The position numbers are program-made. Below, piece after piece: positions 27,001-28,052 of a DNA stretch of 28,052 bases; position 1 is the first letter of the stretch, and each line of letters opens with the position of its first letter. The stretch is from IMG/VR virus record IMGVR_UViG_2534682331_000010. The stretch is one strand, 5' to 3'. This DNA comes from a virus (lineage: Duplodnaviria > Heunggongvirae > Uroviricota > Caudoviricetes).

Positions 27001-28052
27001 TTCACGCCTTAATAACCCCCTCTTTCAGCCAGATAACCTGTGTTCTCGCCATACCTTCCAGCGCGTATTCTTTTGCATATGCAGCATCGACTTGCTTGGC
27101 ATGCCCTTTACCGGCAATCTTCTGTATGCGCTAAACCTAGATAGAATCCACTCTGTGCACATTGAAGCCCGCTCTATGCTTCCTTTCAGGTATTGAAGGG
27201 ATTGAGATAGGCTAAGCATTATTGGCCTCCTGCATCAGGAGAAAGACAATCATGGCGGCGCGGAGAGGTCTGGTATCAAATATTGGGCTTACGCCTTTTG
27301 CATCCACACACCATTCAGTTAACTGGTCTAAGATAGAAATCCTGTATTTCTCAATAATCGGCCATGAAGCGCTCGGATCATTGCAGTAGTCAGGCAAATG
27401 ATTTAATGGCTCAAAAGTTGTATCAGCATTTCCGTAATACCATTTGTTGGTGTTATTCCCTGATGTTTCCGGTTTACTTGCCCAAAGTCCTTTAAAAATT
27501 ATGTCTCCTACCATTCTGTTAATTTCAAAATCACTTAACTGTGAATAATCCATTGTCATTTCCTCGCACGATATCTTAGCCACCGGATATCCCACAGGTG
27601 AGCTGTGTAATTGAAGGTTTTTACGTCAGATTCTTTTGGGATTGGCTTGCGTTTATTTCTGGAGCGTTTCGTTGGAAGGTATTTGCAGTTTTCGCAGATG
27701 ATGTCGGTGAAACTTCGTCGCTGTCGCCTCATGCCGCCCTCCTGACGCCCTGCCCGATCGCCATCAATGCCGCTTTGGATACGGTAGTAAACATCCGTCG
27801 AGGACTGATGAACGGTCGCCAAATCAGCAGCATGGAGCCTTTGCTGTTTCCCTTCTTCTCCAGCCCTGTCGATGGTTCGATAAAATTAATCCGTCCATCA
27901 GTGATAATGCGAACTTCGTCGACACTCTCCAGAGCCTTGCTGAACCATCCGACTGACATATCCTCTGGCACAAGCATCACTACCGTCTGTCGCTGTTGTA
28001 TGCACTGCTCAGCGGCTTTTTCCACCCACGGCCTGATATTGCTGTACGGTGG

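Follow-up and report, generated by a model that had tools for sequence, protein, structure and literature searches.

The window, by which we mean the whole 28,052-nt stretch of DNA that was analysed, is a P22-like E. coli prophage whose nearest group is CUS-3/phiv205-1. Besides an integrase, it carries a tailspike with the P22 head-binding domain, a P22-type portal, a lysozyme, and an antirepressor gene with a sar RNA. The region described here is situated at the window's right-hand end, in the early-right operon on the minus strand. The gene order in this operon is adenine methyltransferase, ninE, ninX, a 64-aa ORF, rusA, ylcG, and quuD. The features are as follows.

1-1152: integrase.
27732-27556, minus strand: ninE.
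27553-27212, minus strand: ninX, intact, 113 aa from the RefSeq ATG (Pfam Phage_P22_NinX, 61.5 bits).
27226-27231, minus strand: Shine-Dalgarno sequence AGGAGG, read from the sequence, 6 nt upstream of the ATG of the ninF stub.
27219-27025, minus strand: chimeric 64-aa ORF, made up of the ninF stub in frame, the filler, and part of the ybcO stub out of frame.
27219-27157, minus strand: 5' stub of ninF, 63 nt or 21 codons, P22/ST64T-type allele.
27156-27092, minus strand: orphan filler, 65 nt, from neither ninF nor ybcO.
27091-27002, minus strand: 3' stub of ybcO (DUF1364), the final 29 codons and the TGA; a start codon is lacking.
27089-27085, minus strand: 5-nt microhomology CGATG at the filler/ybcO joint, from a three-way comparison.
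27022-27016, minus strand: GAGGGGG, likely Shine-Dalgarno sequence of rusA, 10 nt upstream of the GTG.
27005-26643, minus strand: rusA, intact, 120 aa, GTG start, a Holliday-junction resolvase by sequence.
26646-26506, minus strand: ylcG.
26419-26036, minus strand: quuD.
24765-25847, plus strand: porin gene, intact, 360 aa, between Q and the lysis genes.
27091-22776, minus strand: DLP12-like module, 'ybcO-rusA-ylcG-quuD-porin-essD-rrrD-Rz, whose left edge is the ybcO joint.

The assignment of ninX is based on the Pfam match and on the RefSeq annotation of an identical locus. The 64-aa ORF that follows begins as NinF. In a tblastn search, its residues 1-22 (27219-27154) matched the intact NinF of E. 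coli strain N1083 with 90.9% identity (E 5e-9), and 20 of the 21 residues of the stub are identical to that protein. The position after ninE and ninX, and the overlap of the ATG with the upstream stop (the TAG of ninX, 27214-27212), are those of ninF as well. The AGGAGG is the same in the intact ninF of N1083, and was thus inherited from an intact ninF. At the DNA level, the match to ninX-ninF of N1083 (99.6% identity; 98.1% over 591 nt) ends exactly at 27157, and the 94.7% match to Salmonella phage PM43 likewise ends there. In a base-by-base alignment the window follows intact ninF through ...CAATGTGC and is unrelated to it beyond; this is joint 1, at 27157/27156. A reading made from the sequence alone (hereafter the sequence-only reading) had the ORF start like lambda NinF and diverge after about 19 residues. 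The NinF start and the divergence were both recovered; however, the divergence comes after 21 residues, and the allele is not that of lambda. The stub begins MLSPSQSLQY, as in the P22/ST64T type, whereas lambda ninF begins VIDQNRSYEQ. Lambda ninF gave neither a nucleotide match nor a tblastn match at the site, and ninE alone aligns from lambda.

NinF residues 23-58 are not encoded nearby in any frame. The ORF matches PHROG 672 through its residues 1-22 only (profile positions 1-22 of 58, E 0.013), and had no Pfam family at E<=1. It is therefore not a full-length NinF, for which we looked for about 57 aa with a profile match. In the NinF proteins of lambda, PM43, and N1083, a cysteine-rich core, CxxC...CxxCC, spans residues of about 19-40, and from these three aligned sequences we would take this motif to define the family. 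The stub keeps one of the five core cysteines (C21), and the sequence departs at residue 22. At one IMG/VR locus (L088), the 9-nt unit CAATCCCTT is found three times in tandem inside the ninF stub, at the equivalent of about 27206; this repeat adds 18 nt in frame and results in a 70-aa ORF.

The filler is homologous to DNA of Stx phages; the homology runs from 27185 to 27085 (101 nt, 87%). Among phage records, 31 matches to the filler occur in two contexts: 27 have the present arrangement, and four are Stx1 records representing two phages, AU6Stx1 and SH2026Stx1 (87.7% identity). In AU6Stx1, the homology starts in a lambda-type ninF stub, at its conserved "SVERA" codons, crosses the same ninF truncation point, and ends at the equivalent of 27085. 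Beyond the filler, AU6Stx1 (L008, 342-3111) contains AT-rich DNA with a 590-aa reverse-strand ORF, then an HNH gene and ninG. This ORF had no Pfam match, and no 3' remnant of ninF was found downstream of the Stx-phage insert. Upstream of the HNH gene in AU6Stx1 is a run of TTCTTT-like hexamer repeats.

The filler is present in 839 complete E. coli genomes, 589 at >=95% identity and 250 at about 88%; 572 of the 589 close copies are >=99% identical over 81 nt. In IMG/VR, it occurs in 117 loci with exactly the same two architectures, NinX-NinF'-filler-'YbcO-RusA and NinE-NinF'-filler-reverse 590-aa ORF-HNH-NinG. The GTDB species representatives contained a single match, in an E. coli contig, and a protein database search with the 64-aa ORF as query returned 15 clusters, all from E. 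coli. In none of the phage, E. coli, IMG/VR, GTDB, and protein searches did a donor of the filler, an intact parent gene, or a further context emerge. Since the ninF/filler joint is common to two different architectures, joint 1 is older than the ybcO joint.

The ybcO stub is out of frame with the ninF stub. It matches residues 68-96 of K-12 YbcO (93% identity, tblastn E 7e-14; 98.1% at the DNA level) and residues 67-96 of PDB entry 3g27 (E 1.9e-11), and differs from the DLP12 ybcO of strain 120899 at one of 90 nt. The match to Pfam YbcO (PF07102) covers profile positions 62-92 of 92, with 18.4 bits against a cutoff of 29.9 bits. The sequence-only reading had called the last ~120 bp YbcO-like. 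The C-terminus is that of YbcO, and the alternate frame is open for 129 nt (27130-27002); however, ybcO itself is limited to the last 90 nt. The frame opens at 27130 after two stops, with no ATG, GTG, or TTG before the homologous part. YbcO residues 1-67 are not encoded nearby in any frame, and no YbcO N-terminus was found anywhere in the window. YbcO/DUF1364 is a family of His-Me finger nucleases (PMC5714182). By our own reading, the catalytic core would sit in the missing residues 1-67, and the stub would be without the His-Me finger core.

Identity to ybcO begins at 27091 (GTCGATGCTGC..., the same in strain 120899), and the match to the Stx-type filler stops at 27085, with the CGATG shared between them. 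Both joints thus have the character of lambdoid mosaic joints: there is a sharp switch in identity at 27157/27156 and another at about 27091-27085, and the sequences that meet there share little or no homology. The mosaic junction or recombination scar proposed from the sequence is borne out by these switches. The breakpoint that alignment to lambda and DLP12 was expected to locate proved to be two joints separated by the 65-nt filler; the DLP12-side edge lies at 27091, and lambda ninF did not align. From 27091 onward, the DLP12-like module is 97.0% identical over 4319 nt to DLP12 of strain 120899. This P22-like prophage thus carries the late-control and lysis module of DLP12.

Downstream of the scar, rusA encodes a full-length domain (Pfam RusA, PF05866; 82 bits against a cutoff of 22.8 bits, profile positions 1-123 of 124), and the same RusA accession, WP_001099712.1, is found in an identical prophage locus and in DLP12. 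The overlap of the YbcO-like end with the rusA start, noted from the sequence, is present as GTGA, formed by the ybcO TGA (27004-27002) and the rusA GTG (27005-27003). The 64-aa ORF ends with a TGA at 27027-27025, 19 nt from this GTG. The scar preserves the punctuation of the operon, namely the AGGAGG of ninF, the overlap of its ATG with the ninX stop, the GTGA overlap, and the GAGGGGG; transcription of the early-right operon therefore runs through to intact rusA. Judged from these signals, the 64-aa ORF is probably translated as a by-product of the inherited start, and expression of rusA would be unaffected by the scar. Orf/NinB is always found upstream of rap (ninG) or rusA, which encode structurally distinct resolvases (PMC4118853). 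The presence of rusA in the slot of lambda's ninG, which the sequence-only reading had regarded as a known replacement, is such a substitution, and the synteny found here fits it.

Of 5426 complete E. coli genomes, 560 match over the whole length of the 1191-nt region 27830-26640, with identities of about 99.7-100% in the best-ranked matches, and full coverage was also obtained with 27 phage records. A search with 301 nt (27100-27400) matched Nissle 1917, IHE3034, and E. coli 83972 at 99.3%. The E-values of the NinF and YbcO matches, together with identical copies in hundreds of genomes, exclude chance resemblance. Phage mEp332 is among the 27 phage records with the arrangement; it is maintained as a prophage in MG1655 and is able to form plaques (PMC3442831). 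Carriage of the scar by this phage confirms that a plaque-forming phage can do without ninF and ybcO.

We compared the locus to related nin regions. The intact slot, NinE-NinX-NinF-[variable ORF]-DUF1364-RusA, is found in E. coli N1083, E. coli TUM9754, and Salmonella phage PM43. These P22/ST64T-like regions share the gene order with the window, and identity is 95-99.6% over ninE-ninX and the initial 63 nt of ninF; however, they have a full ninF, the variable ORF, a full DUF1364 gene, and divergent DUF1364 and RusA alleles. DLP12 (ninE-ybcO-rusA-ylcG-quuD-nmpC, in K-12 and 120899) shares the 97% identity over 27091-22776, the RusA accession, and the GTGA overlap. In DLP12, a full 96-aa ybcO follows a DLP12-type ninE, whereas here the last 29 codons only are preceded by a lambda-type ninE, ninX, and the ninF stub. 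The lambda nin region (NinE-NinF-NinG(Rap)-NinH-NinI-Q) has the same layout between the replication genes and Q, a ninE with 95% identity, and a resolvase in the same slot (PMC4118853); however, that resolvase is NinG/Rap instead of RusA, and lambda is without ninX, ybcO, and ylcG. In the Stx1 prophages (AU6Stx1, SH2026Stx1), ninF is cut at the same point and followed by the same filler (87% over 101 nt). Their ninF stub, in contrast, is of lambda type and often stops at codon 4; ybcO and rusA are absent, and the filler continues into the AT-rich DNA with the reverse-strand gene. Phage Sf6 contains two dead nin genes (PMC5630979); these result from a nonsense codon and an IS911 insertion, whereas the window contains a two-joint fusion.

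We consider it highly probable that 27219-27002 has no function and is a recombination scar of three parts, left in the dispensable nin region of a P22-like (CUS-3-like) prophage. The three segments have defined boundaries and sources, the arrangement is fixed in the lineage, and the cores of both protein families are lost. The sequence-only reading had named a single intact ORF after read correction, or a lack of nucleotide similarity to ninF or ybcO, as observations that would speak against a scar; neither was found. The nin region is non-essential, draws on a pool of 30-50 genes, and is moulded by illegitimate recombination and deletions (PMC5630979).

The order of events and the mode of joining are inferred from the end products. 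The simplest history would comprise at least two illegitimate events and three sequence sources. In the older event, a cut behind codon 21 would have placed ninF next to foreign DNA, of which the 65-nt filler would be the remnant. In a later event in the present lineage, an illegitimate crossover at CGATG would have fused the filler with a DLP12-type ybcO at its codon 68. The DLP12-like ybcO'-rusA-ylcG-quuD-porin-lysis module would thereby have come in, at the expense of the remaining ninF sequence, of any genes that lay between, and of the catalytic two-thirds of ybcO. That phages gain DLP12 DNA by recombination has been demonstrated experimentally (PMC3945230). The original parental sequences may since have been overwritten by homologous exchange in the flanks.

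Three alternatives were considered. Two frames with family-like sequence within 200 nt could be the product of a sequencing or assembly error, or of a simple or programmed frameshift in one intact gene, and the sequence-only reading had considered a frameshifted gene. However, a read error is excluded because the same sequence is present in the 560 complete genomes and 27 phage records, that is, in hundreds of independent assemblies as well as phage genomes. The two halves come from unrelated families, YbcO 1-67 and NinF 23-58 are absent from every frame, and the RNA fold of 27225-27000 is no better than that of shuffled sequence (z = 0.62). We assign this explanation a negligible probability, and the frameshifted gene, like the read error, is excluded. 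A single internal deletion in an ancestral NinX-NinF-X-YbcO-RusA phage, with the filler as the leftover of gene X, would start from an architecture that is known in intact form with a variable ORF in the position of X. The ninF/filler joint, however, is also found in Stx prophages that have neither ybcO nor rusA downstream, and there were therefore at least two separate events. Furthermore, the DUF1364 and RusA alleles of the intact NinX-NinF phages are far from the DLP12 type (matches of 46-59 nt at 74-78%), and the phage, E. coli, IMG/VR, and GTDB searches revealed no intact filler-bearing gene between a full-length ninF and a DLP12-type ybcO. A single deletion is thus very improbable, though less so than an error or frameshift.

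The third alternative has the 64-aa ORF maintained, either as a new small protein or as a leader ORF that delivers ribosomes to rusA and sets RusA translation, or has the filler functional or unusually recombinogenic. We examined polymorphism in 71 comparable IMG/VR loci, found through an exact match to 29 nt of the filler. Despite 16 variable sites, none of the 71 has a broken ORF; its length is 64 or 70 aa. Its AGGAGG is strong and inherited, its ATG overlaps the ninX stop and its start is thereby coupled, and its TGA abuts the GAGGGGG, within 19 nt of the rusA GTG. In two loci, a G-to-A change at 27026 turns this TGA into TAA and keeps the stop. The filler has no variable site in 65 nt, compared to about 0.126 per site in the flanking stubs. 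The intactness of the ORF and the invariance of the filler could hint at constraint, as a weak argument. However, the recent spread of one haplotype would explain the intactness equally well, and the invariance also. Retrieval through the 29-nt filler pattern is likely to be partly responsible for the invariance (ascertainment), and the flanks can import variation from intact ninF and ybcO alleles, whereas the filler is without a close recombination partner.

The distribution of the variable sites argues against a maintained ORF. By codon position, those of the stubs are 2/3/3 and 3/2/3 in the frame of the ORF, and those of the ybcO stub are 4/3/4 in the frame of ybcO, whereas ninX (7/6/16, with 16 of 29 in third position) and rusA (18/9/36) have an excess in third positions. 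Neither stub shows a sign of selection. Compared to the Stx homologue, nine codon differences are nonsynonymous and three are synonymous, and in most Stx copies a TAA at codon 4 of the ninF stub ends the frame early. The C-terminal third of the ORF is ybcO out of frame; the ORF belongs to no Pfam family, and its homologues, all from E. coli, carry a NinF name that is not their own. Variants with frameshifts, IS insertions, or deletions occur, and rusA has a Shine-Dalgarno sequence of its own. Although it is the least improbable of the alternatives, we regard this one as unlikely. An Rfam search found no RNA element in the scar region (the sole match in the window is the sar RNA), and a scan of 26400-27700 for promoters and terminators found no more sites than in shuffled sequence: a single promoter-like site inside rusA and a single terminator-like site in ylcG.

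Further decay of the scar is seen in other genomes, which contain homopolymer frameshift variants and deletions that join P, cro, or ylcG to the scar. IS100 (IS21 family) was inserted twice independently, after the equivalents of 27107 (L133) and 27076 (L135); the inserted end is 100% identical over 127 nt to an annotated IS100. The "left endpoint" of protein P0009 is really an IS100 insertion. Six loci (L130, L131, L134, L137, L139, and L141), which belong to decayed derivatives of this prophage, contain deletion joints at the equivalents of 27114-27107, 27039-27034, and about 26556. All six of these secondary joints break directly after G(G/T)TA or ATTA, two of them at the same TA (27110/27109), and the site CCGGTA|AAGG in the filler (27114-27107) recurs as an endpoint of several secondary deletions. 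A deletion hotspot at 27110/27109 was considered and rejected: the shared endpoints are mostly explicable as nested successive deletions, and the independent events are too few. The recurrent joints may represent nested microhomology deletions in one decaying lineage.

The scar is already present and annotated in public genomes, under differing descriptions. PGAP annotated the bases equivalent to 27002-27091 in NZ_CP100918 as a DUF1364 pseudogene, "missing N-terminus". RefSeq phage records such as NC_049953 and NCBI protein entries name the 64-aa ORF "protein ninF", and NC_049955 contains the same DNA without annotation. The label "protein ninF" overstates the ORF and is misleading; the name NinF should not be carried forward to the 64-aa product. 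The biological weight of the scar is small, but it is a clean textbook case of lambdoid nin assembly and decay: a P22-like phage has received a DLP12-like module, and one of the two joints coincides with a microhomology of 5 nt.

Elsewhere in the window, the sar RNA (Rfam RF00262, 81.8 bits) at 5440-5507 on the plus strand indicates an immI region of P22 type. The adjacent antirepressor gene is apparently split into a 52-aa N-terminal ORF (5438-5280, minus strand) and a 250-aa ORF with a GTG start (5261-4509, minus strand); the match of the latter to P22_AR_N starts at profile position 52, and the gene may be a frameshifted ant pseudogene. Beside the integrase, an Acyl_transf_3 gene, which probably encodes an O-antigen acyltransferase, is present as two pieces: a 79-aa N-terminal ORF (1308-1547, plus strand) and a 256-aa ORF with a TTG start (1595-2365, plus strand). 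The latter covers profile positions 113-325 only, and the gene is probably disrupted.
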